DNA of 64,000 bases, taken from assembly GCF_024298765.1 (NCBI RefSeq), contig NZ_CP101210.1; one strand, given 5' to 3'. The position numbers were made by a program, and so were the translations under genes. The notes under the pieces are model-generated. The model was given only the letters and a program-made list of their open reading frames with translations, was not told the DNA's origin and did no database searches. This stretch comes from Escherichia coli. GTDB lineage: Bacteria > Pseudomonadota > Gammaproteobacteria > Enterobacterales > Enterobacteriaceae. Shown piece by piece: positions 31,048 to 50,075 of this stretch; position 1 is the stretch's first letter; every line of letters starts with the position of its first letter.

Positions 31048-32475
31048 TTAGACGATCTCTTCCGCGTACTGCCAAAGCGCTTTTAACAGCGCCACTTTCT
31101 CTTTGTCATCGGCATACTGTTGTGCCAGCATCTGCAATTCATCAGCGTAGCCCTGCAAAAACTCTGGCGTGAAGACCTGGCGGCGGTGCTCAAGCCAGCG
31201 TTGCTGCTCGGCATAATCCAGCGTCCCCGGGAAGTTGCGCGCCCGATAATTGAACAACAGTTTTTCAATTCGTTTATCAACAAAAGTGATATCCAGTGCC
31301 GGTAAATTACGCGGCTCGGTTTCCAGCACAATTTTCATTGCTGCACGATCGGCGTCACTGAAAAAGCCGTTATAAAGCTGTGCATCCACGTTATCTGAAG
31401 GCGTAAACGGTTCGGCTTCCGCGAATATCGCCACCACTTTTTCACGCACTTGCGGATTTTCACGCAGAATTTTTAGGTTATCGAGGCAATGCTGACGATT
31501 AATTCCCAGTCGGTCGGCATCTTCCGGGCGTAGCGTATTCGCCTGGGCCAGTACCGGACATTTATTGATGTGCACCAGCTTAATCGGAACGGCGGCGTTA
31601 TCGCCAAGATCGGCTTTTGCGGTATATAAACGCTCGCGCAATGTGTCGCTATCCAGCTCCAGTAATGGCGAAATGTCTCCTGCCAAATCCACCATAATTA
31701 CGGCATTGCGATTTTCAGGATGCCACGCCAGCGGTGCCACCCAGCTGGTATTGCCGCGCCATGCCCCAAACATTCCGGAAACGTGAACCAGGGGTTTCAT
31801 CTGCGGAACATCAATCAACGCCATCAGTTTGTGTTTATTACGATGGGTAAAGAGATATTCAAACAGACGTGGCTGACGCGTTTTTACCAGTTTCGCCATC
31901 GCAATAGTGGCGTACACATCAGCCATCGCATCGTGGGCGTTGCTATGTTCAATTCCATTCGCTTTGGTTAAATGCTCAAGGCGAAAGCTCGGTAGACCGT
32001 CATCATTTTCAGGCCAGTTTATTCCTTCCGGGCGCAGGGCATAACAGGCACGCATAACATCCAGTAAATCCCAGCGCGAGTTATCATGCTGCCAGCTCCA
32101 GGCGTAAGGATCGTAGAAATTACGATAAAAAACGTTGCGTGTGACTTCGTCGTCGAAACGCACATTGTTGTAGCCCAGAATACAGGTCTTCGGTACGGTA
32201 AAAAGCGAGTGAATACGGGCGGCAAACGCGGCTTCGTTTTCTCCTTTCGCCCGTGCTTCCTGCGGGGTAATACCTGTAATTAATACGGCTCCAGGCTGGG
32301 GTAAATAGTCATCCGCGGGCTTGCAGTAAAAGACTTCGGGTTCGCCGATGACATTGAATTCGCTATCGGTGCGAATGGCTGCGAACTGTGCAGGGCGATC
32401 TAACGCGGGGTGCGTGCCAAAGGTTTCGTAATCGTGAAACAAAAAGGTAGATTGTTGCTTACCGTCATTCATCAT
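31048..32475 (-). CDS. sbcB: exodeoxyribonuclease I
   Basis: MMNDGKQQSTFLFHDYETFG... DnaQ-like exonuclease N-terminus; start trimmed from ORF. Confidence 0.95.
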   Translation of the reverse strand: MMNDGKQQSTFLFHDYETFGTHPALDRPAQFAAIRTDSEFNVIGEPEVFYCKPADDYLPQPGAVLITGITPQEARAKGENEAAFAARIHSLFTVPKTCILGYNNVRFDDEVTRNVFYRNFYDPYAWSWQHDNSRWDLLDVMRACYALRPEGINWPENDDGLPSFRLEHLTKANGIEHSNAHDAMADVYATIAMAKLVKTRQPRLFEYLFTHRNKHKLMALIDVPQMKPLVHVSGMFGAWRGNTSWVAPLAWHPENRNAVIMVDLAGDISPLLELDSDTLRERLYTAKADLGDNAAVPIKLVHINKCPVLAQANTLRPEDADRLGINRQHCLDNLKILRENPQVREKVVAIFAEAEPFTPSDNVDAQLYNGFFSDADRAAMKIVLETEPRNLPALDITFVDKRIEKLLFNYRARNFPGTLDYAEQQRWLEHRRQVFTPEFLQGYADELQMLAQQYADDKEKVALLKALWQYAEEIV

Positions 32476-32677
32476 TAGGTTAAATCCGTTATTTCTGCTG
32501 TCTGCCAGAGTATCAAATATCACCGTGCTAATCAGCTTTAGCGCGACAATTTGACAGCGAGTAGCAACAGATCATGTCAGATGAAAATGAGAGGGTAGTC
32601 ACATTTTCTTGCACTTTATTCCAGCCAGTTCATAAGTATTTCCGTAAAAAGAACAGCTATTTGAAACTCCTGAGGGT

Positions 32678-33850
32678 TTGCTGTTGAAACGCCGTCTTAT
32701 TATTGCTGCTTCTTTGTTCGTTTTTAACTTATCGTCTGGTTTTGCGGCGGAAAACATTCCTTTTTCACCTCAGCCTCCAGAGATTCATGCCGGGTCCTGG
32801 GTACTGATGGATTACACCACCGGACAGATCCTCACCGCGGGTAATGAGCATCAACAGCGCAATCCCGCCAGCCTGACAAAGCTGATGACGGGCTATGTCG
32901 TGGATCGCGCTATCGATAGTCATCGCATTACGCCAGACGATATTGTCACCGTGGGGCGCGATGCGTGGGCGAAAGATAATCCGGTGTTTGTCGGTTCTTC
33001 ACTGATGTTTTTGAAAGAGGGCGATCGCGTATCGGTACGTGATTTAAGCCGTGGTTTAATTGTGGATTCCGGAAATGACGCTTGTGTTGCATTGGCTGAC
33101 TATATTGCCGGTGGGCAACGGCAGTTTGTTGAAATGATGAACAACTATGCCGAGAAGTTGCATCTCAAGGATACGCATTTTGAAACAGTGCATGGTCTGG
33201 ATGCACCTGGCCAGCATAGCTCGGCTTATGATTTAGCTGTGCTTTCTCGCGCTATCATCCACGGCGAGCCCGAGTTTTATCATATGTACAGTGAGAAAAG
33301 TCTCACCTGGAACGGTATCACCCAGCAAAACCGTAACGGGTTGTTGTGGGATAAAACCATGAATGTTGACGGCCTGAAAACGGGTCATACTTCTGGTGCC
33401 GGGTTTAATCTCATTGCTTCGGCTGTAGATGGGCAGCGTCGTCTCATTGCAGTGGTAATGGGGGCTGACAGTGCAAAAGGTCGTGAGGAAGAGGCAAGAA
33501 AATTACTGCGTTGGGGGCAACAAAACTTTACTACGGTGCAAATTTTGCACCGTGGGAAAAAGGTCGGAACGGAACGCATCTGGTATGGCGATAAAGAAAA
33601 TATCGACCTGGGAACGGAACAAGAGTTCTGGATGGTGCTACCGAAAGCCGAAATTCCACATATCAAAGCCAAATATACCCTTGATGGTAAAGAGCTCACC
33701 GCGCCAATTAGCGCCCATCAGCGGGTAGGGGAAATTGAACTTTACGACCGTGATAAACAGGTGGCGCACTGGCCGCTGGTTACCCTGGAATCTGTCGGGG
33801 AAGGCAGCATGTTTTCTCGCCTGAGTGATTATTTCCACCATAAGGCCTGA
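32678..33850 (+). CDS. dacD: D-alanyl-D-alanine carboxypeptidase (PBP6b)
   Basis: signal peptide, SLTK active-site motif (PASLTKLMT), SGN motif; no ATG at the N-terminus, apparent TTG start at 32678 or 32684 preceded by tgaggg RBS. Confidence 0.9.
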   Translation: MLLKRRLIIAASLFVFNLSSGFAAENIPFSPQPPEIHAGSWVLMDYTTGQILTAGNEHQQRNPASLTKLMTGYVVDRAIDSHRITPDDIVTVGRDAWAKDNPVFVGSSLMFLKEGDRVSVRDLSRGLIVDSGNDACVALADYIAGGQRQFVEMMNNYAEKLHLKDTHFETVHGLDAPGQHSSAYDLAVLSRAIIHGEPEFYHMYSEKSLTWNGITQQNRNGLLWDKTMNVDGLKTGHTSGAGFNLIASAVDGQRRLIAVVMGADSAKGREEEARKLLRWGQQNFTTVQILHRGKKVGTERIWYGDKENIDLGTEQEFWMVLPKAEIPHIKAKYTLDGKELTAPISAHQRVGEIELYDRDKQVAHWPLVTLESVGEGSMFSRLSDYFHHKA

Positions 33851-33936
33851 CCTTTCTTTTGCAGCAGACTGGCAGGAGTGCGAGTCTGCTCGCATAATCA
33901 ACACTCATTCCTTGTGGTTTTAATTTTGCAACTATA

Positions 33937-33952
33937 CTGTATATAAAAACAG
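33937..33952 (+). promoter_or_regulatory. LexA (SOS) box upstream of sbmC
   Basis: ctgtatataaaaacag = CTGT-N8-ACAG, 17 bp upstream of the sbmC start. Confidence 0.8.
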
Positions 33953-33968
33953 CATCAATGGAGGCGTC

Positions 33969-34442
33969 ATGAACTACGAGATTAAGCAGGAAGAGAAACG
34001 TACCGTTGCAGGTTTCCATCTCGTTGGCCCGTGGGAACAGACGGTAAAGAAAGGTTTTGAGCAGTTGATGATGTGGGTAGATAGCAAAAATATTGTGCCG
34101 AAGGAGTGGGTTGCTGTCTATTACGACAATCCGGATGAAACACCCGCCGAAAAATTACGCTGCGACACCGTCGTGACGGTACCGAATAACTTTACGCTCC
34201 CCGAAAACAGTGAGGGCGTCATTCTGACAGAAATTTCAGGTGGTCAATATGCGGTGGCGGTGGCTCGTGTAGTCGGTGATGATTTTGCTAAACCCTGGTA
34301 TCAGTTCTTTAATAGCCTCTTGCAGGACAGTGCTTATGAAATGTTACCAAAGCCCTGCTTCGAGGTTTACTTGAACAATGGCGCGGAAGATGGGTACTGG
34401 GATATCGAAATGTATGTTGCGGTGCAGCCAAAACATCACTAA
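33969..34442 (+). CDS. sbmC: DNA gyrase inhibitor
   Basis: 157 aa; GyrI-like fold protein, SOS-box upstream. Confidence 0.9.
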
Positions 34443-36299: not shown

Positions 36300-36530
36300 T
36301 TAACAACAGCCTTCTTCTGTATGCAGCAAGGCAAAAAGTTCTGTAACTCCATTGTTATTAACTGCACTGGTTACTAACACGTTGTGCGCTCCAGCTTCCC
36401 GTAACCAACTTTTCACCAAAGATATTTGTTCCATGCTGGCTAAATCTGCTTTGGTTACTACTCCAATGACCGGGTGATTCATGGCCCGGTAGGGCGTTTT
36501 TACCTCTAATTCCTGCTTCAGCGCTGAGAT
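36300..36530 (-). pseudogene. YeeP/YfjP-family GTPase, C-terminal fragment truncated by IS66-family remnant
   Basis: translation ...HPVIGVVTKADLASMEQISLVKSWLREAGAHNVLVTSAVNNNGVTELFALLH matches only the C-terminal third of the intact paralog at 46401-47312. Confidence 0.6.
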
Positions 36531-36534
36531 TCCT

Positions 36535-36712
36535 GCTTGTTGCCGGAAAAGCAGGCACCTGCCGTCTGAACGGTATCGATCCGGAAGCGTATCTGCGCCA
36601 TATTCTGAGCATACTGCCGGAATGGCCCTCCAACCGTGTTGACGAACTCCTGCCATGGAACGTAGTTCTCACCAATAAATAAGCGTCAATACGGTGCTCC
36701 GTTGACGCTTAC
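36535..36712 (+). mobile_element. IS66-family element, 3' terminal fragment (TnpC C-terminus plus right IR)
   Basis: plus-strand translation ...AGTCRLNGIDPEAYLRHILSILPEWPSNRVDELLPWNVVLTNK* parallels the C-terminus of the IS66 TnpC at 50853-52388; ends with cgcttac (GTAAGCG IR). Confidence 0.7.
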
Positions 36713-37096
36713 TTTAATCCGTTTTCTGAGCTTAGATTTTTCTGTTCCTACCCAGACCGTGGATTTGGAATTCATTTTTTGTCAGGTCAATGCTAATCGT
36801 TAAAACGGCCATAACGCACCTCCACTGGAAGGTTTATCAGTAATATCCTACCGTTGCTTCATGGTCGGGGCGTCCATTCCATTATTATCGGTTTTCCTTT
36901 CTGTTTATAAATGAAAACGCCAGCTGTATTCAGGCTGGCGTCAGGGGAAATGAAGCCTGTTGAGTGAGATTCACCGGTTCTGGTGCAGAAGCTGCAGATG
37001 GCGCAGGGTAAGGACATCTTCTCTTGCCTGCTTAATACAGGACAACAGTGCTGTTTCTGTGGTTAATGGCACTATACCCTGCATCACTGCATTGTC

Positions 37097-37291
37097 TTAC
37101 AGCAACTGGTGAGGGCTGGCATAAGTTGCCGGTGTTTCGGTAGAGTCACGGTCATCCACCACGCGGAGTGAATAACCGTTTTCAGCGGCCTTATTAATCA
37201 GTTCAGTGATATTAACACCATCAATGTCAACGACAATGTGCCCCATATCCAGCGCCTGTACGTTAACGCTGTCGGCTTCCAGTGTCATCAT
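37097..37291 (-). CDS. yeeW: CP4-44-type prophage protein YeeW-like
   Basis: 64 aa, directly downstream of the cbtA-like gene. Confidence 0.6.
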   Translation of the reverse strand: MMTLEADSVNVQALDMGHIVVDIDGVNITELINKAAENGYSLRVVDDRDSTETPATYASPHQLL

Positions 37292-37661
37292 TTCGCCTCC
37301 GGATACTTACCCAGGGTAATGTTATTTACCGTTCTGTAATTGTCGCGGGTCATCAGGCCGGTCGCCCTGCGAGCCCGGAGGATATCGATGCTGTTTATTA
37401 ACTGAGAGCGGGTACAGGCGCTGAATCCCGGCTGGTCGGTAGCACCAGCGCGTATTTTTCCACGAGAAAGTTCACCGCATCACACAGTGAAATGCCTGCC
37501 TCAATATGCTGCTCAATCACACGTTCATCGGCAAAAGGTGTGTCATTCAGTGTGAGGCCATAGTGCTGGTCCAGCAGTCGGGACAGCAGTATCTGCCAGA
37601 TTTCAACAGGAGACGGGCGAGAACTGGCCGCCTGCCCGGGTAATACAGGTAATGTTTTCAT
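37288..37661 (-). pseudogene. cbtA: CbtA-type toxin (cytoskeleton-binding), apparent 1-bp frameshift
   Basis: N-terminal [73 protein letters not shown] then premature stop; the conserved tail ...[51 protein letters not shown] resumes in another frame; span is 374 nt. Confidence 0.65.
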
Positions 37662-37749
37662 ACTGAAGATTTTCCTGATATGCAGATATAAAAATGGAAA
37701 AGTGGCGTGGTGAAAACACCAGGCCGTAGCAGAAGGCTATTCTGGAGAG

Positions 37750-38118
37750 TTAATTTTTCATTTCGGGCGTCGGATAAACAGCCAGATAAACGTAACCACA
37801 ACTGCTGAGGGTATCGGCTTTGCAGGTCAGCCCTTTTGCATACAGCGTGACGGTATGCTGATGGCGGGGATTCAGTTCACCGCTGGTGAGCATGAGTTCC
37901 AGTTGTTTCATCAGCAGCGGAAAGGCCTGGTCCAGGTGGTACGCATCTGCATCGCTGAACAGGCCTCTGATACCGGCGCGGTCGGCAAGGTAATGCAACC
38001 GGTTACCCTCCTGCACCAGACGTGCCCCGAAACAGGGCGTCACGGTGCAGGGCAGCCCCCACCAGGGGCGGTCGTGATTGTCGTCGGGAAGTGTTGTCCC
38101 GGGGAGTGTGTCTGACAC
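37750..38118 (-). CDS. cbeA: CbeA-type antitoxin
   Basis: 122 aa; MSDTLPGTTLPDDNHDRPWWGLPCTVTPCFGARLVQEGNRLHYLADRAGIRG... Confidence 0.9.
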   Translation of the reverse strand: MSDTLPGTTLPDDNHDRPWWGLPCTVTPCFGARLVQEGNRLHYLADRAGIRGLFSDADAYHLDQAFPLLMKQLELMLTSGELNPRHQHTVTLYAKGLTCKADTLSSCGYVYLAVYPTPEMKN

Positions 38119-38197
38119 GATAAAATCCTTACAGAAAATCGGTTAAGAACGGTCCGGTAATGGCGATAATTCTGCTCATCAGAATGCCCTTACTGAC

Positions 38198-38419
38198 TCA
38201 GTTCAGAGTGACGCTCATCAGCCGGACATACGGGCCAAAACTGTCCTTACGGCGTTCAGCAAACACGGCCAGCACACCGGGAATATCCTGCACTTCACGA
38301 CCGGTATACGTTTCAGTGCTGCCGTGCCAGCGGTATTTGCCGGTACAGAACGGAAAAAGACGGGATGCAGGATGCTGTTGGTGAATACGCATGGCTTCAC
38401 CACGGGTGATGATTTTCAT
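38198..38419 (-). CDS. yeeT: DUF987 family protein YeeT-like
   Basis: 73 aa; conserved position between radC-like and antitoxin genes. Confidence 0.8.
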   Translation of the reverse strand: MKIITRGEAMRIHQQHPASRLFPFCTGKYRWHGSTETYTGREVQDIPGVLAVFAERRKDSFGPYVRLMSVTLN

Positions 38420-38481
38420 AATGGGATACCTCTGAAGACAGAAGATAAAAGTGAAAACAGGTGTGATGTGGTTGTGACGGG

Positions 38482-38958
38482 TTAAAGCAGACCATGTTCG
38501 GCAAAGGAGAAAACCTGGCTGCCACCGACTATCAGATGGTCCGGCACCCGGATATCCACCAGGCCCAGTGCCTGTACCAGACGTTCCGTGATAAGGCGGT
38601 CTGCCTTGCTGGGTGTGACTTCACCGGACGGGTGATTGTGCGCCAGCACCACGGCAGCGGCATTGTGGTACAGGGCGCGTTTAATCACTTCCCGGGGATG
38701 GACTTCCGTGCGGTTGATGGTGCCGGTGAAGAGGGTTTCACCGGCAATCAGCTGATTCTGGTTATTCAGATACAGTACCCGGAATTCTTCACGCTCCAGT
38801 CCCGCCATGTTCAGAATCAGCCATTCCCGTGCCGCACGGGTGGAGGTGAAGGCCACGCCGGGTTCATGAAGATGACGGTCCAGGGTTTTCAGGGCCCGCT
38901 GAATAAGGCTGCGCTCGCCGGGCGTCATCGCTCCGGGCAGAAAGGAAAGCTGTTGCAT
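38482..38958 (-). CDS. yeeS: RadC-like JAB-domain protein
   Basis: 158 aa; HNHPSGEVTPSKADRLITERL JAMM motif. Confidence 0.85.
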   Translation of the reverse strand: MQQLSFLPGAMTPGERSLIQRALKTLDRHLHEPGVAFTSTRAAREWLILNMAGLEREEFRVLYLNNQNQLIAGETLFTGTINRTEVHPREVIKRALYHNAAAVVLAHNHPSGEVTPSKADRLITERLVQALGLVDIRVPDHLIVGGSQVFSFAEHGLL

Positions 38959-38969
38959 GGCCTCTCTCC

Positions 38970-39449
38970 TCAGTCAATGATGCGCATAATGGCGCTGCAT
39001 TCCGGATGCTGCAGGGCGTAATCCCGCAGCCGGTAATAATGGACCGTCATGGCATAACACTCCGTACGACAGGCGTGATGACTGTACGTCATCAGACAGG
39101 CAGCAATGCCGGCGGCTTCCGGGCTCATTTCAGCGCGGTTACCGTTCATGGCACTGAACAGTACCCATGTTTCGTCATCATCGTCATCCGGTTCGGGTGC
39201 CATAAATGCGCCACCGTTGTTCAGGGTGTACAGATTCCAGATACCCCCGCAGTAGTCTTCACACAGACGGTCCATCCAGCCGAAGATACGGGGCTCCAGG
39301 GTCACCCACTGTGGAATGAGGCCAAAATGCTGCGGCCAGAAGCTGATGCGCTGTTCATCAGGGACGAGGCTGGCAACCAGCTGAGGCGGATTATTCTCTG
39401 GTGTTGTAGCTGAATAAATTGTGGGGGTATTCTGAGAAACGGTCTTCAT
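38970..39449 (-). CDS. antirestriction protein (KlcA/ArdB/YfjX-like)
   Basis: 159 aa with acidic stretch EPDDDDDETW; position upstream of radC-like gene as in CP4-type islands. Confidence 0.7.
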   Translation of the reverse strand: MKTVSQNTPTIYSATTPENNPPQLVASLVPDEQRISFWPQHFGLIPQWVTLEPRIFGWMDRLCEDYCGGIWNLYTLNNGGAFMAPEPDDDDDETWVLFSAMNGNRAEMSPEAAGIAACLMTYSHHACRTECYAMTVHYYRLRDYALQHPECSAIMRIID

Positions 39450-39530
39450 GAGATAACTCCTTAAATAACAAATAAATGTGTGTTTTTCAGGAACGAAAGC
39501 TGAATGATTCCCTCACTCAGGGAAACGGCA

Positions 39531-40352
39531 TCAGCGCAGGCTCTCCAGCATCGTTTCTGCCATCACCCACAATGCGCGGTTGAGCTTAATGTCGGTATCA
39601 ATGCTGTGAATGGCCCGGGTATGGATACGTTTTCCTCTGGCACTGCGCCCGGAAATCCCGCCTTTCAGCATATTCTCCTGGATGGTCTGATAAGCACTCC
39701 ACAGGTCCTTACCGTAATCCTCCCGGCGTCGTGGTGTCAGAATGTCGGCGGTGGTGACGGGCTGATGTTCGTCACCATAACGGTAAGTCAGCGCCGCCTG
39801 TGCCAGCGCCTGGCGTGCCGGTGGCGGCAGGACCAGCGACTGCATGGCATCACGCTTCTCCTCTATCCGGTCAAACACGCCCACCACCTCGTAAGCCCCT
39901 TCAATGACTCTGTCCACCACATTTCCCCGGTGCGGAACACGTACTTCCCCCAGAGACTGACCACAGACGCAGCCGTTCTGGCAGACGAACCTGAAGTACC
40001 CCGGCAGCATCTGGTAGCTGGAGGTACCGTCATGAGAGTTGAGCAGAATAATTTCAGGGACATGTTCTCCGTTTATCTCTCCGGCCCGCCGCAGACGCAG
40101 CATGTGTTTTGTGTATCCCCGGCGGCCCGGGTCGCGCACACGGGTCTGGCAGGCGAAGAACGGCTGAAAGCCTTCCCGCTGCAGATTTTCCAGGACGGTA
40201 ATGGTGGGAATGTACGCATACCGTTCACTGCGGGAGGTGTGCCGGTCTTCCCCAAAAATACTGGGTACATGGCGTATCAGTTCTTCATGTGTCAGCGGAC
40301 GGTCACGGCGTATCTGGTTTGCAGCATAACCAAAACGACTTGCTAATCGCAT
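39531..40352 (-). CDS. DUF932-family protein (YfjQ/YafZ-like)
   Basis: 273 aa; conserved member of the CP4-type island backbone. Confidence 0.65.
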   Translation of the reverse strand: MRLASRFGYAANQIRRDRPLTHEELIRHVPSIFGEDRHTSRSERYAYIPTITVLENLQREGFQPFFACQTRVRDPGRRGYTKHMLRLRRAGEINGEHVPEIILLNSHDGTSSYQMLPGYFRFVCQNGCVCGQSLGEVRVPHRGNVVDRVIEGAYEVVGVFDRIEEKRDAMQSLVLPPPARQALAQAALTYRYGDEHQPVTTADILTPRRREDYGKDLWSAYQTIQENMLKGGISGRSARGKRIHTRAIHSIDTDIKLNRALWVMAETMLESLR

Positions 40353-40572
40353 ACTTTGCTCCTTATCGGTGGTTAAGATTTACTGGTGCAATAAATGAAA
40401 AAAGCCGCGTCTCCCGGAGAAGACGCGGCCTGACGGGTGAAATGAATAAGGTTTATTGTCTGAGAGGCCTTTCACTGGCGAGCCACGCATTAAGCGGCTT
40501 TCCGGTAACAATGGCTGGGGCTGTATTTACCTTTGATATTAATAATGTGCAGAGAAACGCATGGTTTACTCC

Positions 40573-40983
40573 TTAGATTTTAAGTTTGTCCTGGGCTACA
40601 ACGACAGGTTTTCCGGATGTGTCGATGACTCCTACCGTCGGTACGCCATTTTTGATTTCGAAGAACGGTTTGTTGCTACCTGAGCACAGTTGATTGTCCC
40701 CGTATTCAATCATTTGTGCTTTCCCGGTTTTCAGGTTAACTACCGAGACAGTGTAGTCGTAGCACCAGGCACCACCACGTTCAAGCACGAAAACATAGCT
40801 GTTATCTTTATAGTTGAACTGATTCTTTGTCTGGCAATTCATACCGTCAATTTCGGTACAGGAAAACGCTTCTGTAGTATTAACGTATTTGATGTTATTT
40901 GGCAGTTTTACTTGTTTCGCAGTAGCGAAGACAGAGAACAGAATAGTTACAGCAACGAGTAAAGTTTTGATAAAAGTTTTCAT
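40573..40983 (-). CDS. small secreted protein, unknown function
   Basis: 136 aa; N-terminal signal peptide MKTFIKTLLVAVTILFSVFATA; 4 Cys in mature part; hairpin plus T-run terminator at about 40401-40440. Confidence 0.6.
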   Translation of the reverse strand: MKTFIKTLLVAVTILFSVFATAKQVKLPNNIKYVNTTEAFSCTEIDGMNCQTKNQFNYKDNSYVFVLERGGAWCYDYTVSVVNLKTGKAQMIEYGDNQLCSGSNKPFFEIKNGVPTVGVIDTSGKPVVVAQDKLKI

Positions 40984-40998
40984 GATAGACTCCTTAAA

Positions 40999-41487
40999 TT
41001 AGTTAACCGCAGCTACGTAGTTTTTCACCAGATACGCGAATTCATGCACGCCAATTTCACCGAACCAAACCAGGTAGGCCGGGTCATCTAAACCAAAGTA
41101 ACGGTAGCCAACAACTTCATGGGTTTTTGGGTTATAGAGTGTTACGATAAAGTCCCAGCCGCAGGTATTGGCTTTGCAACCGTCGCCCTGGAACCAGACT
41201 GTACCGTTAATGTTTACTGGCGTGATACCTCCACCAGGGCCATCCATATAGCCGCCTTTACCGAACATGCCGCTCAGTCCGACCGGTTTTAATGCTTTGT
41301 CGATAGCGGCTTTGTAGGTAGCGTCACCTTCGTACAACTCGTACGTTGATGGACACGCTCCAGGTTGTTCAGCCCAGGCTTCCGGGTTACAACTAAGAGC
41401 TTGTTTTACGGTAGCCGCTTCTGCGTTAAAGTTAAAGCCCGTGAACAGAACCGCCAGAAATAACATAAGGGTATGTAAACGTTTCAT
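40999..41487 (-). CDS. secreted protein, unknown function
   Basis: about 163 aa from internal Met of ORF 40999-41790; signal peptide MKRLHTLMLFLAVLFTGFNFNAEA; Cys-containing motifs GACPST and DGCKANTCGWD. Confidence 0.55.
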   Translation of the reverse strand: MKRLHTLMLFLAVLFTGFNFNAEAATVKQALSCNPEAWAEQPGACPSTYELYEGDATYKAAIDKALKPVGLSGMFGKGGYMDGPGGGITPVNINGTVWFQGDGCKANTCGWDFIVTLYNPKTHEVVGYRYFGLDDPAYLVWFGEIGVHEFAYLVKNYVAAVN

Positions 41488-41817
41488 TGTAAATATTCTT
41501 CCGTTGTAAATGGCGCTGGAAAATTTCTCATCAGTGAAACCTTCCGGAAGTTTCCCCCCCTTGTATGATGTATATCGCCAGTATTTTATTTCATCCCGGC
41601 TGTAATTTTTATATTCCCCGGCACGTGCAATAACGCTGACCAGAGATATAAGGCTCATTAATAACTTTACAGGTAATTTCATAATTAAATTTCCAGTGAG
41701 TGAATTGACAGGTGAGGGGTAAAACTTTCTCTCAGGTAATATATATATGAAAATATTTTCAATAACACCAGACAGGAAAAACACCACCACAGGCGGTGGC
41801 GTTTCTTTGGGGCGTCT

Positions 41818-42888
41818 TTATTTAATCCGGGCCATCGCGTTTCTCAGTGCCAAATCTGCCTCTTCCGTTATATCCAGGCTTTTCTGCAATACCGCCTCTG
41901 ACCGGGTCAGTGCCTGACGTGCTGCCAGCGGTTTCCGGATATGCTCCATCGCCAGCATCGTGTCTTCATAGCCCTGCTGACGCCAGGCGTCGGTATGTGC
42001 CGATGTAAAACTGAGCAGACCGCCGCTGTTGCCACCATCACCTGCATATTTCAGCCTTTTCCGGGGACGGATCTCAAGGATTGTGGTGTCCGGAAAAGCC
42101 TGGCGATCCCATAAAGAACCCTCACTCAGATGCGTCACAATCACCATATTGCATCCGGCATCGACCAGAGGCGTCACAGGGGTATTTCCCTGCATATTTC
42201 GCCATCCTCCCATACCACCATCACCGAACATTGTCCCCTGAACCTCACGGGGACGGAACAGCAGGGGCAGCGCGGCTGACGCAAGCAGAGCCTCTTTCTG
42301 CTGTCCGCGGGGCAGGCTCTGGATATGCTGAAAAACGGCGTTTTTCGTGGTTCCGACACCCAGTTCAGCACGAATGCAGTCAATAATATCCTGCATGCCC
42401 CCTTCTGTGGGGTACAGCGACACATACAGCGGTAGCCCGTCTGCCAGAGCATCAGTATCAAGATAATGATCCATCAGCGCTGTCAGGGGCTCATCTGACA
42501 ACAACGGCTGAGCCATCAGATTGTCAAACCCGTTGATTGTCGATATATGGCGAAGAAGCGTCGTAAGCAGTGCTCCTGCACGTCCGGGGATCTGGCAGAG
42601 GTTCATTGCCTGGAACAATTTTTTCAGCAATGAAAAGTAAACCAATCTGTTTACCGACAGCACCTGATTATTCCCCAGATGATCCCAGAGCGCCTCCAGG
42701 CGTACGGCAGCTTCTGACAGATCGGGAGAGGCCGCGATAATGGCACCATTGAATGCGCCAATGCTGGCCCCTGAAACCATGCTGATCTGTGTACCACACT
42801 CTGCCAGTGCCTTAACCACTCCCGCCTGATAAGCGCCCACCGCCCCGCCACCGGACAGCACCAGCCCCGTTTTCATTTCTGTACTCAT
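41818..42888 (-). CDS. patatin-like phospholipase
   Basis: 356 aa; oxyanion-hole SGGGAVGAYQAG, nucleophile elbow GASIG, catalytic Asp motif FGDGGM; start codon overlaps upstream gene stop. Confidence 0.85.
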   Translation of the reverse strand: MSTEMKTGLVLSGGGAVGAYQAGVVKALAECGTQISMVSGASIGAFNGAIIAASPDLSEAAVRLEALWDHLGNNQVLSVNRLVYFSLLKKLFQAMNLCQIPGRAGALLTTLLRHISTINGFDNLMAQPLLSDEPLTALMDHYLDTDALADGLPLYVSLYPTEGGMQDIIDCIRAELGVGTTKNAVFQHIQSLPRGQQKEALLASAALPLLFRPREVQGTMFGDGGMGGWRNMQGNTPVTPLVDAGCNMVIVTHLSEGSLWDRQAFPDTTILEIRPRKRLKYAGDGGNSGGLLSFTSAHTDAWRQQGYEDTMLAMEHIRKPLAARQALTRSEAVLQKSLDITEEADLALRNAMARIK

Positions 42889-43790
42889 GCAGCCCCCTTC
42901 TGAAATATTTCATCGACCATACTTTCAGAGAGGCGTTCTGCAGAGCAGAGGCGAGGCATGCGAACCGGTAAGTGTTCTGCAGCCTGCGTGGTTGACCAGA
43001 TCACCGGATGCTGCTCTTCACTGCACCAGTCTCCCAGCCAGTTAATCGCGTCATGCCACTCGTTATCTGCCTGCTCCCGGCCCTGACCACCAAGCCAGTC
43101 CAGAGTGTTCAGACGCACGGTTGCACTACCGCCACTCTCCTGTGCCATCTGCGTTAATGCTTTATGTCTGAGAATATCCAGTAGCTGGTTAACCTGGCCT
43201 GTTTCGCTCTGACGTATCACATCACCAAACGCGCCCCAGCGAAGCTCTTCAAGTGCCACATAACAACGTCCGGCAGGGGAAAATGACGCATATCGCCCGG
43301 CGCTCCACCATGAGAATATCTGCTCAAGATGTAACTGCGCCCGCTGAACCTGGTCAACACGGTGGAGTTTTTCTTCAAGATGATTCAGTTTATGGTGAAC
43401 CTGATCGGCCAGGGTGAGTAACTGCTCCCGCGTATCTGCGGAATAATGCGCCAGCCTGGCTGTATCACTGACCAGTGAACTGACCCTGTCGTTTACCCGG
43501 GTAATCGCGTAGTTTGTGGTGGCAAGTGACGTTGTCAGCTCCGTCAGCCAGCGCAGGGATGCCTCAACGCCCTGTGCAAGCGAAGCATTGATGGCATTCT
43601 GCCGTGCAGCACCTTCGCCGCTCAGCCCCTCTTTTAACCGCCGGAAGAACGTGCGCTCTCCGGCCGTGCGGATATGCTCCTGTGCAACATCGATACCGTT
43701 TGCGAAATCAACCACAAATTTTTCAGGAAGACAGGTGAGTACCTGACATACCCGGTTATCAGCAATTTGTTGAATAAATGGTGAAGTCAC
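42885..43790 (-). CDS. coiled-coil protein, possible YjcZ-like partner of dynamin-like GTPase
   Basis: 301 aa, helical/coiled-coil character, no enzymatic motif seen; overlapping stop/start junctions with both flanking genes. Confidence 0.5.
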   Translation of the reverse strand: MTSPFIQQIADNRVCQVLTCLPEKFVVDFANGIDVAQEHIRTAGERTFFRRLKEGLSGEGAARQNAINASLAQGVEASLRWLTELTTSLATTNYAITRVNDRVSSLVSDTARLAHYSADTREQLLTLADQVHHKLNHLEEKLHRVDQVQRAQLHLEQIFSWWSAGRYASFSPAGRCYVALEELRWGAFGDVIRQSETGQVNQLLDILRHKALTQMAQESGGSATVRLNTLDWLGGQGREQADNEWHDAINWLGDWCSEEQHPVIWSTTQAAEHLPVRMPRLCSAERLSESMVDEIFQKGAA

Positions 43791-46183
43791 AGCATTGTCT
43801 CCAGTTCTTCCCTTAACGCCTTACTGTCAGTAATGAGCTCAGGAACTCTTTCATTTAACGCCTGAAGACGCCCGGTCAGCCGTTCCTGCGCCTGCTGATC
43901 GCGTTTATGATCTTCAGAGCTCTGAATCAGCGTGTTACGCAGCTGTTCAACTTTCTCCCTGAATGTACAGAAAAAGGCATCGATTTCCTGGCGGACGGGC
44001 TGGTTAATATCCTGCTCAATGGATGCCTGCAGCTCCCCGAAATATGCCCGGGTCAGTGACATCACCTCCTTCCTGACCTTGTTGATATTGATAACACTGC
44101 GGCTCACATCCACGTTATAGTTTTCCCATCCCCATTCTTTGGTGCCAATCCATCCACAAATCTTTCCAATGAAGCTATCCTTCCGACGGCGACGGGTGAC
44201 TGTCTCCGTTCTTTCCTCCATAAGCGCACTCAGATTTGTTTTTACCGCGAGCCGGGTCTGTAACTGACTGACTGCCGGAAAACTGATTTTTACAGTGAAG
44301 CCCTCATCCGCCAGGCGGGCATTGATACGTCCGGCGATGTTTTCTGTCGCATACAGGGCCGTACCACGAAAACCTGTTTCAATCCCGCTGACGATTTTCT
44401 CCAGCTCAGGCCGGAACTGTGCCTCAGCCTCACTGTGCAGGCTGGTCACGGTCGATTCGATTTGCGTCATCAGTTCAAGGGCTTCCCTGCGATTATTTAA
44501 TGTTATCTCGGGGTTTTCCGGATCAAAGACTCGTATCCTGTCATCCTCCCAGCCCGGGTTATTGATACCGGACCATCGATAAATCTTTCCCCATAATCCG
44601 GACCGGGACCTTCGTTGTTCTGTGTCTTCTTCCTCCAGCATTTGCTGTTCTTTGCGTTTACCGGTTCTGAAATAGTCATTCAGTTCCTCTTCCAGTGAGG
44701 TGCAGACCCCCGTGAGTAATTCCCGGGTTCTGGCATCGATCTCCTCCATGGCCATTCTGACATCAGCGGTCACCTGCTCCTGACAGTCCGCGATTTCCCG
44801 GATATCCGCAAGCAGGCTGGTGATATGCGCCTGCAGTGACTGAATGCTTTGCTGTAGCCCCTGATGGCGTAATGACAGATATTCGCTGACATTTTCCGCA
44901 TTCTGCATCAGTTTTGCGGCGGCAGAATCAACCGCCAGTGCCGCCGCTCTGGAATGGGAACTCTGTATGACTTCCGTTATCAGTTGATCGATAAGTGAGC
45001 CTTCCCACAGGTCTGTTGCCCCTTCAGTTGCCAGTTCGCTGTCTTTACAGACGTAATCTTTTTTCATGCGACCGAAAGCTTCCCTGACAAAATCATCGAC
45101 CCAGGCTTCATCAACAGGAAGGGTTCCGTTTTTCCGTAACTCATGAAGCGCACGGTTAGCCAGGTATGCCTGGCGTGAGGATCCGGGATAAACGCGGGAG
45201 GCGGGCAGCACATCGCTGTTCAGCATTGCCGGAACTTTCTGGCGTACGGCATCTGCCCCATCGCCATTGCGGTCTTTCTCATCAAATTTATTGACCAGCA
45301 CAAACAGGCGGCCAACTGATACGTCCGCAATGGCATTAAGCTCTTTACGGACGTCTTCATCCGCTTTTGAGTTCATCTGGGTGTAATCCATCACTGCCAG
45401 AACCGCAGAAGCTTTCTGCAGTTGATCCCGCATCATCACTTCCATCTGCGGCTGGCCGGCTTCATTAGGGCCGGGGGTATCCAGCAGTGTGAGTGTTCCC
45501 TGGCATGCATCCATCCCCACCAGATGGCTGAATTCCACGTCGATCACCGGCAGTTTCTGCACTTCTGCGTATTCATCAAAAGGAAACTCACTCCCCATTG
45601 CCGCAGCAAGACGAACCAGATCGTTTAACGATGCCAGTCCGGTAAAGATTTCCTCCTCCCCGTGGTATTCATTTTTGAGCCAGCCATCATCCGTCAGAAT
45701 ATCCAGCAGTTCACGGGTATCCCCGGTTTGCAGCAGGGTCTGTGCGACTTGCTGTCCTGCCGGGGTGGCGAGTTTTTCCTGCAGTGTGATTAATAAATTG
45801 CGGACAGGCTGAATATGTTCCAGATGGAGGACCGGCTCAGTTTTTCCGGGAACGTGGCGGATGAGTGTCGGTACAGAGGTCATGGGGCGGTTACGGTTAG
45901 GCAGAATTTCCTGCCCCACAATGGCGTTGATGGTGGTTGATTTGCCTGCTTTCATCGTGCCGACAACAGCCAGCACCATCTCCCTGCGGGCGGTTTTGAT
46001 TTGTTCGCCCTCCAGCTCCTCAATTCTTTTCAGCGCTTTCCGTTTATCAAAAAGCAGCCCGTTTTCGTTCTTACTGTCAGATAACACATCCGGCTCATCA
46101 ACCATTTGCCGGAGCAGATTGATATTCAGTTGCAAAAGCCGGTCGGCTTCATCACAAAGCAGGGCGATGTTCTTTTCGTGCAT
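43787..46183 (-). CDS. bacterial dynamin-like GTPase (CrfC/YjdA/LeoA-like)
   Basis: 798 aa; G1 GTMKAGKST, G3 DTPG, G4 NKFD in N-terminal third; long helical stalk C-terminally; RBS aggaagg upstream. Confidence 0.8.
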   Translation of the reverse strand: MHEKNIALLCDEADRLLQLNINLLRQMVDEPDVLSDSKNENGLLFDKRKALKRIEELEGEQIKTARREMVLAVVGTMKAGKSTTINAIVGQEILPNRNRPMTSVPTLIRHVPGKTEPVLHLEHIQPVRNLLITLQEKLATPAGQQVAQTLLQTGDTRELLDILTDDGWLKNEYHGEEEIFTGLASLNDLVRLAAAMGSEFPFDEYAEVQKLPVIDVEFSHLVGMDACQGTLTLLDTPGPNEAGQPQMEVMMRDQLQKASAVLAVMDYTQMNSKADEDVRKELNAIADVSVGRLFVLVNKFDEKDRNGDGADAVRQKVPAMLNSDVLPASRVYPGSSRQAYLANRALHELRKNGTLPVDEAWVDDFVREAFGRMKKDYVCKDSELATEGATDLWEGSLIDQLITEVIQSSHSRAAALAVDSAAAKLMQNAENVSEYLSLRHQGLQQSIQSLQAHITSLLADIREIADCQEQVTADVRMAMEEIDARTRELLTGVCTSLEEELNDYFRTGKRKEQQMLEEEDTEQRRSRSGLWGKIYRWSGINNPGWEDDRIRVFDPENPEITLNNRREALELMTQIESTVTSLHSEAEAQFRPELEKIVSGIETGFRGTALYATENIAGRINARLADEGFTVKISFPAVSQLQTRLAVKTNLSALMEERTETVTRRRRKDSFIGKICGWIGTKEWGWENYNVDVSRSVININKVRKEVMSLTRAYFGELQASIEQDINQPVRQEIDAFFCTFREKVEQLRNTLIQSSEDHKRDQQAQERLTGRLQALNERVPELITDSKALREELETML

Positions 46184-46244
46184 TATTTAACCTTCCTAAG
46201 ACGCATTTTCATGACAACCACGGAGGAGGTCATTTACTACAAAT

Positions 46245-46279
46245 GATCGTTTATAACGATCGATATGATAGTAACGATC
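46245..46279. promoter_or_regulatory. cluster of three GATC (Dam) sites in 5' region of the dynamin-like operon
   Basis: GATC at 46245, 46258 and 46276; aacgatcgat occurs twice 18 bp apart; 62-96 bp upstream of the GTPase start codon. Confidence 0.5.
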
Positions 46280-46400
46280 GATGTATTCTATTAACTTGAG
46301 AAACACAACGCAAGGGGACAACCCGGGTATGGCTGCGTTTGCATAGTGTTTTCATGGAGTTAAAAATCTGTAACAACAGCCTGGTACATCACCACCGGGT

Positions 46401-47312
46401 TCAGAAGAAAATCCAGTTCCATACCACGCGGGCAACAGAGACCACCGAGTCACGGACGGCGCGCAGAACCGTGCGTGCAACAGAGGCAATGCAGACGCTC
46501 TCCGCCGTGTCAAATATCCGGTCCACCGCACCGGTAAACTGTTCACGGGCCTGAGACCGGACAGACTCCGTGCGCAGCTCGTCCTGCAGGCGGGTCATCA
46601 GGGGACTGGCGGCATGGTCGGGAAGTGCTGTCATGAGCGCACTGACCAGCGTATCCAGTTCCCAGCCGGTGCGGGCCGATACGGCAACAACCCGATGTAC
46701 GGGCCGGAACAGACGGAATACCGCCTCCGTTTTTTCGCGAATGTTCTGTGCCTGTGCGGGAGAAGGCTGAATACCGGCCATATCCCATTCATGGCAGGGC
46801 TCCGTTTTATCGGCCTGCATCACCACAAACAGTACCCGCTGATGTCCCCGGTGCAGGATGTGTCGCCAGAAATACTCATCCACAGACAGGGCACGGTCAT
46901 CGGCTTTAATCAGCCACAGTACCAGGTCCAGTTCGAGCAGAATGTCACGGTACAGGGCTTCATACTCTGCATCCCTGTCCCGGCTCTCGCCCACCCCGGG
47001 CAGGTCAGTGATAACCATGCTGTGACCATGGCCATTCAGACGGAAGCGCTGCACTTCCCGGGGGCCGGCGTGAACATCACTGACCGGGGTGACCTCCCCC
47101 TGAAACAGCGCATTACAGAGTGAGGATTTACCGGCCCCGCTTTTACCCATAATGCCAGGCACGGGTTCGTGACTGGTGAGTTTGCGCAGATGTTCCAGGA
47201 TGTGACGGGAAAGTGAGTAAGGCAGGGAGGAGAGCGGTTTTTCAATTGCCTCAATGGCATCAGACGGATTCATACATGTATTCCCGGTGAAAAAAGACAA
47301 AACCCCGCGCAC
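46401..47312 (-). CDS. YeeP/YfjP/YkfA-family GTPase, apparently intact
   Basis: P-loop GIMGKSGAGKSSL, DLPG, VMQADK motifs; possible start at internal MNPSDAIE (47273). Confidence 0.8.
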   Translation of the reverse strand: MRGVLSFFTGNTCMNPSDAIEAIEKPLSSLPYSLSRHILEHLRKLTSHEPVPGIMGKSGAGKSSLCNALFQGEVTPVSDVHAGPREVQRFRLNGHGHSMVITDLPGVGESRDRDAEYEALYRDILLELDLVLWLIKADDRALSVDEYFWRHILHRGHQRVLFVVMQADKTEPCHEWDMAGIQPSPAQAQNIREKTEAVFRLFRPVHRVVAVSARTGWELDTLVSALMTALPDHAASPLMTRLQDELRTESVRSQAREQFTGAVDRIFDTAESVCIASVARTVLRAVRDSVVSVARVVWNWIFF

Positions 47313-47356
47313 CGGAAAGGTGGCGGGGGATTCACGGAAATAATATCTGTCTGAAA

Positions 47357-48520
47357 TTATCTGGAATCGATTTGGCTGTTCTGCCTGGTTGCCACCAAAT
47401 CATGGTACGCCTGCTCAATCATTTCATTCAGCAGTTTTTTTGGGAGGACACCACGACTTCGGGCAATACTTTCAAGCTGTTTGTGGATTTTTCCGGACAG
47501 TTTCAGAGGGACGGAACCATCAGCACGTTCATCACGCCTTTTTTGTTGCTCCCGGGCACTTTTCAGCTCATCAAGAAGAATCGCTTTATGCTGAATCCTG
47601 GGGGCCTGGAAGGAGACCTGCGTAAACTTCGCTCTGTTCCGTCTGGGATTACTTTCCAGTAAAAACTGTACCTGTTGCTCATTCCAGCCCTCCCAGTTAT
47701 CAAACGTGGCGCAGGCAAACCAGTATTTCTGCTCCGGGGTAAGGGGATTCAGCGGGGTTCCCACACACCGGACCTGCATGGCGTTCCATAACCAGTCACA
47801 CTGTTCACTGTCCCTGCTGTCCACCCACGAAAAGGGGGAGGGGTAATCATTGTTTATGCTGGCCCATTCAGAGAATACTGAGTTGATAATCGTCCTCGTA
47901 GCCTCTGGTCCGGATTTCAGCAGGTAACTGGAGCAGAACCATATAATTTCACGGTAGATTTTATCCGGATGCACGGTGCGCATCGGCTTTTCTCTGGGAC
48001 CGGCAATCTTCGGTTGCGATGGAAACCCCGTGGCAAACCGCAGATGTTCCGGGGGCATTCCTGAACGTTTTTCAGGAATGGGTGTGAGTCCTGCGTTTCT
48101 GGTCTTTTCCGCTTGTCCGGTATTGCCTCCGGCCGGAGTGTTGTCGGGAGTATCTTCCGGAGGCGAGGTGTTTTCATTAGTTGGGGGAACAACAGCAGAA
48201 CTGTCCATCTCCGGAATGGGTTGAGGGGCATAATCACTGTGGTAGCCAGGGGAAAGCGTTAAGTCCCGAAGGATGACATCAGGTTCCGGGCAGTGAGTGC
48301 CACCGGGAGTGAACGGGAGTTGTTGCTTTTGGGAGAAAAATGTATTGTGAATGCGGGTATACAGCTGGAACAGAAAAAAATAAGATGCCCGTGGTTCTTT
48401 TTTTAACCACTGTGTATATTCCTCTATGGCACCGAGCTGTTGTTTGTGCCGTTTTACAGCATCGATATACGGACAGCTGGTGCAGATATCATCCAGTTCC
48501 TTTCCCACAATACACCTCAC
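47357..48520 (-). CDS. hypothetical island protein with low-complexity Pro/Thr-rich linker
   Basis: 387-aa ORF; central PPTNENTSPPEDTPDNTPAGGNTGQ region; C-terminal helical segment; no recognised catalytic motif. Confidence 0.45.
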   Translation of the reverse strand: MRCIVGKELDDICTSCPYIDAVKRHKQQLGAIEEYTQWLKKEPRASYFFLFQLYTRIHNTFFSQKQQLPFTPGGTHCPEPDVILRDLTLSPGYHSDYAPQPIPEMDSSAVVPPTNENTSPPEDTPDNTPAGGNTGQAEKTRNAGLTPIPEKRSGMPPEHLRFATGFPSQPKIAGPREKPMRTVHPDKIYREIIWFCSSYLLKSGPEATRTIINSVFSEWASINNDYPSPFSWVDSRDSEQCDWLWNAMQVRCVGTPLNPLTPEQKYWFACATFDNWEGWNEQQVQFLLESNPRRNRAKFTQVSFQAPRIQHKAILLDELKSAREQQKRRDERADGSVPLKLSGKIHKQLESIARSRGVLPKKLLNEMIEQAYHDLVATRQNSQIDSR

Positions 48521-49984
48521 CTGCTTTTCTCACATTTGCAGATTTTAAAAAAGCAAACAAAAACCTCCGTACATGATGTACAGAACAATCTACCAGGTAG
48601 TGGCGTCAGAAAACCTCCGGGCCGCCTGCACTTTCCGGAATGCGCCGGTTATGAAAAACCGGAAATTCAGTCTCTGTTGTAAGATGTACCCTCTGATACT
48701 ACGTTTTCTCTGTGTATTTAACTCACTGTATTTATTGTCTTTTTAAGCTTGACTGATATTCTCCGGTCATAGTGTGCCGGATATACATCCCGTAAACTTC
48801 TCATTTTTATATAAAAATACTTGCACTCTCTTCAGCGCATCTGTCTCCTTTAAGTAAAAAATGTTTTCACGTATTGCTGTAAATTCATTTTAAATCAGTA
48901 TATTACCTTGATATTGCTGTCTCCTGGTTTGATGCGTAATCGTTCTGCCTTTCTGGATGATTCTGGTGCTTCCGGGTGCATTCTCCTCTGCACATGCAAC
49001 AGTTCGTCATCGCCACGCTCCCAAAAAGCATATAAAAACGAATCGAATTTGATATTTTTTTCAATCGTTTTTCATAGGAATTTCGTAGGGTATTCTCCGC
49101 TATAACCTCCATATTTGCTGTCTTTTTCTTCATAAATCGTATGCAATATAGCCTGTCTGTCAAGACCTCTTCTCTGCTGTTGAGGAGACGATCTCATTTT
49201 TGGTCTTTTCCGGGAGAGAGGCTGTCAGATGAGCGAGCCGGATATACTGTCAGAGGTACACCCCGTAGCAGACCTGTGCTCCCATTTCCGCGATCCGGAA
49301 CCAACAACACCCTACGGTTAATACCATTTGAAGCGTCAGGTACTGCAGGAAGTTCCCCCCTGCGCGGACATCGGTTCCTGCCGACATCTCACAATACGGC
49401 CAGACTGTCATGCAGTAACACCCGCATGCGGTCTGCGGTTTTAAGCGCACTCTCCCGTTTTCAGTGCACCGATAATGCGTCATAGTAAGTCTGGGGGAAG
49501 TTACGGAATGCCTGTTAAGTGGTGCCGTGGGTGGAGACAGCTTACTTTTCTACAGCAACTGCAGTCATTCAGGATGATCAGGAGATATTCTGTCAATGTC
49601 ACGATCCTGCCATTTTCGTACCCGCTAAGATACTTCCGTTACTGATGCTGTCCGCTTTTCACCATTTCATCCTCACTGACAGGCGTTGCGTTTTGGGTCA
49701 TCACCACAGCTTTACGTTTCTCTTTTAACCGGTAACGCTCTCCTTTGATATTCAGCGTGGTTGAGTGATGCAGCAGTCAATCCAGGAGCGCTGTTGTCCG
49801 GCAACCACCATATCAACTTCTTCCCGGGTGTGGCGGAGAGGTGGTATCCTGGCTGAGTTTCGAAGCGAACCGTTCTTTTTGACGGGCGCATTTTACGTCC
49901 GGGCTGAATGTAGTAACGCGGCATGGAACGTCGGCCCGTATACCATTGCCTTAATCTCCGCAAAGATAACCTCGTCATTCCGGA

Positions 49985-49992
49985 CATTCTCT
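49985..49992. repeat. 8-bp target-site duplication (left) of IS66-family insertion
   Basis: cattctct identical to 52430-52437. Confidence 0.85.
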
Positions 49993-50075
49993 GTAAGCGT
50001 CGTCTGAGTACCGTCTGGTCCCGAATCCAGGATCCTGTAACTTAAGCACCCACTTATTTTGCAGGTGGACACCTC

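Follow-up and report, generated by a model that had tools for sequence, protein, structure and literature searches.

Where does translation of dacD begin in the Escherichia coli DNA analysed here, and is the codon at that place intact? The window, that is, the whole stretch of 64,000 nucleotides under analysis, carries TTG, CTG and TTG as consecutive in-frame codons (32678-32686) ahead of the conserved N-terminus of the dacD product, as the initial annotation had described. That annotation placed the start on TTG and considered the codon to be either a non-canonical start or a mutated one. Our analysis indicates that dacD, encoding the periplasmic DD-carboxypeptidase PBP6b (a low-molecular-weight class C PBP of peptidase family S11), is very probably translated from the UUG at 32684. 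On comparative grounds, this UUG is the ancestral dacD start throughout the Enterobacteriaceae, and neither a strain-specific lesion nor a mutated ATG.

The dacD coding sequence, 388 codons followed by TGA, occupies 32684-33850 on the plus strand, as defined by the open reading frame, Pfam, PDB entry 5FSR and RefSeq. Its product contains the Pfam domains Peptidase_S11 (PF00768, residues 27-262, at 9.3e-105) and PBP5_C (PF07943, residues 282-372, at 1.5e-21), and all catalytic motifs are kept, with SLTK at 63, SGN at 129 and KTG at 232. Residues 22-374, as aligned, are identical to the DacD chain of 5FSR, to which the protein aligns with 815 bits, compared to 381-395 bits for DacA and DacC entries. 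The gene is flanked by sbcB (minus strand, annotated at 31048-32475) and sbmC, in the syntenic order sbcB-dacD-sbmC.

Inspection of the DacD N-terminus shows basic residues (KRR) in the N-region, then a hydrophobic core, then GFA ahead of AE. The presumed signal peptide coding region spans the 21 codons at 32684-32746 (plus strand) and specifies MKRRLIIAASLFVFNLSSGFA, with cleavage expected before AENIPF. A signal peptide of 21 residues has been described for PBP6b, with Glu as residue 2 of the mature protein, implying Ala1 as its first residue (Peters et al., 2016). In the alignment with 5FSR, the DacD sequence likewise starts at A22, after tag residues. The signal peptide length, the mature Glu2 numbering and the 5FSR alignment all fit a precursor counted from 32684. 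The paralogues dacA (PBP5) and dacC (PBP6) resemble dacD in belonging to the Peptidase_S11/PBP5_C family and have cleaved signal peptides, as DacD presumably does, but both have ATG starts in MG1655, whereas dacD has TTG. If the 21-residue signal peptide is removed as described, the N-terminal proteomics that had been proposed as a check would see only the mature protein and could not reveal the start.

Direct reading of the window gives ctGAGGgt TTG CTG TTG AAA CGC CGT CTT A at 32670-32699, and the sequence directly 5' of TTG CTG TTG AAA CGC CGT CTT ATT is aaactcctGAGGgt. The nearest upstream in-frame stop, which closes the frame 5' of the TTGs, is a TAA at 32645-32647 (plus strand). Between this stop and the TTGs, an in-frame scan found neither ATG nor GTG, and only TTG, CTG and TTG are present as possible starts. 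In the other direction, the earliest in-frame ATG is codon 42, within the mature enzyme. The initial annotation was thus correct that there is no in-frame ATG nearby, and the upstream ATG that it had allowed for on re-inspection does not exist. It was also correct about the Shine-Dalgarno sequence, GAGGG at 32672-32676, which leaves a gap of 7 nt to TTG 32684. The core GAGG (32672-32675, plus strand), assigned from the anti-Shine-Dalgarno duplex, conservation and spacing, leaves a spacer of 8 nt, and the strongest anti-Shine-Dalgarno duplex at the dacD start is -6.1 kcal/mol. The TTG assigned as initiation codon from the RefSeq CDS start and conservation, and presumably read as fMet, lies at 32684-32686 (plus strand) and is followed by codon 2, AAA (Lys), at 32687-32689 (plus strand). 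The in-frame TTG at 32678-32680 and CTG at 32681-32683 (plus strand) are alternative candidates, neither of which we judge to be the main start.

Comparison with reference strains gave the same picture. In K-12 MG1655, the RefSeq dacD coding sequence (b2010, NP_416514.4, 1167 nt, 388 aa) starts at the position of window 32684. The same start, with codon TTG, is found in all six intact E. coli RefSeq records examined (MG1655, DH5alpha, an O157:H7 strain, clone D i14, LD91-1 and ECCHD184), although agreement among RefSeq annotations is partly circular, as one pipeline propagates one model. At the nucleotide level, -60 to +3 is identical between the window and all six records, and in MG1655 identity to the window covers -60 to +33, leaving the initiation region without differences. 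The window strain itself is not K-12: its dacD 5' region is 100% identical to that of ECCHD184, and the 24-kb neighbourhood of its dacD is 99.7% identical to strain 2017.13.01CC. The annotation of ECCHD184, which is collinear only around the centre, was dropped for the window as a whole, and 2017.13.01CC was used for context. Around dacD in the latter strain (99.7% identical), 50 intact annotated coding sequences start with ATG (44), GTG (5) or TTG (1), the single TTG being that of dacD. The initial annotation had held that the same TTG in reference strains would make the feature unremarkable; MG1655 and the others do have it, and the feature is unremarkable in that sense.

A wider sample of the species was equally uniform. 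Of 5426 complete E. coli genomes, 5415 contain the 421-nt dacD 5' region, annotated as dacD. The 33-nt stretch at 32669-32701, which takes in the Shine-Dalgarno sequence, the two TTGs and codons 2-6, recurs without any change in 5281 of the 5426. In 67 further genomes codon 4 carries a synonymous CGT to CGA change, and in 2 further genomes GAGGA replaces GAGGG, with both TTGs unchanged in either group; the remaining 65 genomes (5415 minus 5281, 67 and 2) differ otherwise within the 33-nt stretch. None of the complete E. coli genomes matched synthetic 33-mers in which 32684 had been changed to ATG or GTG, or 32678 to ATG. The most frequent nearby polymorphism in E. coli is a T to A change at 32668, 5' of the Shine-Dalgarno sequence.

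Two oddities appeared in the same survey. In one E. coli genome, the dacD 5' region is found again on a plasmid, as a second copy (1 of 5459 places). In E. coli E1624 (NZ_CM173935.1, L007:3242-4544), an IS2 element lies inside the first codons of dacD, and the gene is still called as an intact 387-aa protein starting from an ATT in IS-derived sequence (IQGASLAASLFVF...). This 387-aa DacD call is almost certainly an artefact.

Conservation beyond E. coli carries most of the argument for 32684. A scan with one genome per species yielded 80 dacD loci among the matches listed, with 94 further relatives outside this set. It covered Escherichia, Salmonella, Citrobacter, Enterobacter, Lelliottia, Leclercia, Kluyvera, Klebsiella, Raoultella, Kosakonia, Trabulsiella, Pluralibacter, Franconibacter and other genera, with DacD identities to the window protein of 80-99%. 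At the position homologous to 32684, all 80 species have TTG, and the codon following it is AAA, again in 80 of 80. Upstream, at offsets -12 to -9, AGG is present in every species and the G leading it in 79 of 80, and positions -8 to -1 vary freely. A ribosome binding site would be expected to leave just such a pattern, an invariant AGG with a near-invariant G followed by variable positions -8 to -1.

As a control for conservation of the amino acid alone, we aligned by codon the 81 genes formed by the 80 species and the window. Invariant leucine occurs at 24 columns of this alignment, and column 1 is the only one of them written with a single codon. The other 23 use three to six synonymous codons each, the commonest codon reaching at most 71 of 81 sequences. 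When all 192 invariant columns with degenerate codons are considered, just three of them, codons 1 (TTG), 2 (AAA) and 147 (CAG), are written in one way only. Synonymous sites are thus thoroughly randomised in this gene set, which argues that selection acts on the nucleotides of the TTG and not just on the residue. AAA is likewise invariant at nucleotide level (81 of 81 sequences). This comparison sets the TTG at 32684 apart from a leucine codon that happens by chance to be TTG. Codon 147 (Gln, 33122-33124) is the sole single-codon column outside the start region in the 81 sequences; its invariance may be due to chance, as Gln has just two codons.

These data bear directly on the suggestion that an original ATG start was mutated in this strain or its lineage, leaving dacD poorly expressed or decaying. 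The dacD start region does lack an ATG, and the ATG that E. albertii, Salmonella and Citrobacter have at 32678 has become TTG in E. coli. Yet the TTG at 32684 is the codon that never varies among the 80 species and that sits in an identical context in 5281 E. coli genomes, the open reading frame is intact with its catalytic motifs, and K-12, with an identical initiation region, makes active and functionally important PBP6b (Peters et al., 2016). We therefore regard the probability of a mutated start as close to nil. The idea retains something of its substance at 32678 only, where E. albertii, Salmonella, most Citrobacter and Klebsiella have ATG, and this codon is probably the functional start in none of them. 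The alternative of a non-canonical start also stood in part: TTG is used, but UUG, read by initiator tRNA and starting about 3% of E. coli genes, belongs to the three start codons that are standard in bacteria.

A different question is whether translation might begin two codons upstream, at TTG 32678, yielding a 390-residue precursor with the N-terminus MLLKRR.... This is the earliest start-capable codon of the open reading frame, and the longer N-terminus would still be valid as a signal-peptide N-region. Among the 80 species, the homologous codon is ATG in 37 (in E. albertii, Salmonella, most Citrobacter, Klebsiella and Raoultella), ATA in 19, TTG in 7, TTA in 7, ATT in 4 and ACA in 2, with ACG, GTT, TTT and CTG in one species each. 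ATG and TTG together could be read as favouring initiation there, but in 36 of the 80 species the codon is a non-standard start (ATA, TTA, ATT, ACA, ACG, GTT, TTT or CTG). Moreover, a start at 32678 would make the TTG at 32684 an ordinary leucine codon and leave its invariance in 81 of 81 sequences unexplained. The codon homologous to 32681 is similarly inconstant, being CTG in 37 species, CCG in 35 and others in 8.

Spacing was evaluated with the DtoStart metric of a 2022 NAR study (PMC9841429). In that work the optimum was about 13-14, and reporters spanned 10-16; since they carried the Shine-Dalgarno sequence UAAGGAGG, DtoStart equals the spacer plus 8. At DtoStart 10 or 11, even AUG was unused in reporters and toeprints, as short aligned spacing physically keeps the codon out of the P site, and GUG at DtoStart 14 or more performed like AUG (PMC9841429). 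In the GAGG register of E. coli, DtoStart is 16 for 32684, 13 for 32681 and 10 for 32678; in the UGAGGA register of the other species, the corresponding values are 13, 10 and 7. The TTG at 32684 thus lies within the tested range in either register, although against it, the strongest register of the E. coli GAGGG places it at 16, the long end of that range, with CTG 32681 at 13. The TTG at 32678 follows GAGG after a spacer of only 2 nt, at a DtoStart (10, or 7 in the other register) at or below that at which AUG is unused. The registers differ because of position 32676 (offset -8), where E. coli has GAGGG and 79 of the 80 species representatives have GAGGA. This single difference shifts the strongest anti-Shine-Dalgarno register and moves the start from DtoStart 13 to 16.

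The E. coli register is also what could recommend CTG 32681 as the initiation codon, or as one sharing initiation with its neighbours, as DtoStart 13 is nominally optimal. CUG supports initiation at approximately 1-2% of AUG, far more weakly than UUG, and no annotation uses CTG 32681. With a non-start codon, CCG or another, at the homologous position in 43 of 80 species, initiation at 32681 appears highly improbable.

Public databases hold both 388- and 390-aa forms of DacD for every species looked up, which might be taken to speak for 32678. For the E. coli window protein, the 388-aa form is found in at least 1000 contigs and the 390-aa form in 7. The corresponding counts are 85 and 2 for E. 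albertii, 465 and 226 for C. braakii, and 231 and 7 for K. oxytoca, and in S. enterica diarizonae the longer form is the commoner one (921 contigs vs. 824). The dacD genes of Salmonella, Citrobacter and Klebsiella have the same invariant TTG-AAA and the same Shine-Dalgarno position as E. coli. They differ in carrying at -6 an ATG, absent from E. coli, from which the 390-aa form is annotated. Being only 2 nt from the Shine-Dalgarno sequence and poorly conserved, this ATG is unlikely to be the main start in Salmonella and the others, and it probably represents a mis-called start (for example, at loci L014, L017, L086 and L012). If ATG is unlikely to serve at this position, the TTG of E. coli at 32678 is still less likely to do so, and we consider translation from 32678 improbable. 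The 388/390-aa ambiguity is a matter of annotation and not of biology. In practical terms, dacD orthologues are annotated inconsistently in Salmonella, Citrobacter, Klebsiella and E. albertii, and the evidence favours 388 aa everywhere.

The start of dacD at TTG 32684 is thus the reading on which the RefSeq record of MG1655, all intact records examined, conservation and spacing agree. Under it, the 30S subunit would be positioned by the GAGG at 32672-32675, and initiator tRNA would read the UUG at 32684 as fMet. The resulting precursor of 388 residues would lose its first 21, a Sec signal peptide, on export. We infer that ribosomes initiate at 32684, and that this weak start may help to keep basal PBP6b synthesis low. 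In the part of the supplementary data available from a tetracycline ribosome-profiling start-site paper (PMC4909307), dacD, b2010 and P33013 were not found, nor were they in the corresponding part from the TRAINSPOTTER nascent N-terminomics paper. This absence is in keeping with how weakly dacD is expressed under standard conditions. Text searches of the literature on dacD returned nothing on its start codon, the TTG matches being mostly primers or tabulated sites.

The TTG start of dacD is already known, as it is the reference annotation and is evolutionarily fixed, and taken by itself it has very little biological weight. In having a standard alternative start codon preceded by a Shine-Dalgarno sequence, dacD is like other UUG-initiated E. 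coli genes, and it is slightly notable among them only in the retention of TTG without exception across 80 species. UUG belongs to the top tier of start codons in reporters, where it initiates at 10-100% of AUG, and GTG and TTG starts were reported to lower expression 8-12-fold in a paper on the lacI start codon. The case of lacI is similar to that of dacD in that different genera have kept a weak start codon. The difference is that experiments demonstrated a fitness effect of the lacI start codon, in a paper that does not mention dacD.

The abundance of PBP6b gives this conservation a possible context. At pH 7.5 there are 6-30 copies of PBP6b per cell, compared to 800-4000 copies of PBP5 (dacA). 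At pH 5 the estimate for PBP6b is 200-800 copies, and in K-12 it is induced 30- to 100-fold (Peters et al., 2016). For dacD at pH 5, induction is also put at 25- to 40-fold. The scarcity of PBP6b fits a weak start codon. It is conceivable, though rather doubtful, that TTG is actively maintained because selection holds dacD translation weak, keeping PBP6b scarce at neutral pH until acid-induced transcription. ATG and GTG are each one step away from TTG and would still work as starts, yet they are seen in none of the 80 species, and the variants carrying them matched no complete E. coli genome, which is the argument for a weak start kept by selection. Complete family-wide retention of a weak start would fit selection that limits expression of a cell-wall enzyme made in small amounts and induced by acid. 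If so, translation of dacD may be sensitive to IF3 or to growth state.

No RNA family, stable fold or conserved structure was detected that would support a structural cause for the invariant TTG-AAA. Rfam gave no match at E<=1 in 32300-34100, the fold of 32640-32730 was no better than that of shuffled sequences (z = 0.19), and RNAalifold predicted zero pairs around the dacD start in 21 genera.

Upstream of the gene, an alignment of 14 genera revealed two conserved blocks within 32598-32654 (plus strand), the presumed promoter or regulatory region of dacD. These are GTCACATTTTCTTGCAMTTTAT at 32598-32619 and TTCCGTAAAAAGRAC at 32640-32654; the rest of the sbcB-dacD intergenic region is not conserved across these genera. 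Acid induction of dacD may act through these blocks, as promoter or regulator sites. A promoter scan found no sigma-70-like site on the plus strand of the sbcB-dacD intergenic region. Judged by eye, the first block is similar to a CRP-type site (TGAGA-N6-TCACATTTT, 32588-32603) in Salmonella and Citrobacter as well as in E. coli.

Within the gene, ACGGTGCAAATTTTGCA at 33533-33549 (plus strand) is an exact match to the intragenic sigma-54 site IS25 (Bonocora et al., 2015; PMC4591121), listed there for dacD and located 427 nt upstream of sbmC. The site is nearly palindromic, and the minus strand matches it with one mismatch. Further along the window, at approximately 36300-50000 and downstream of tmaR, the match to the 99.7% identical strain points to a CP4-44-like island. 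In that best-matching strain, the island includes cbtA (frameshifted), cbeA, yeeS/T/W, an antirestriction protein, a patatin-like phospholipase, genes of the RdcB, dynamin and GTPase families, and IS66 remnants.
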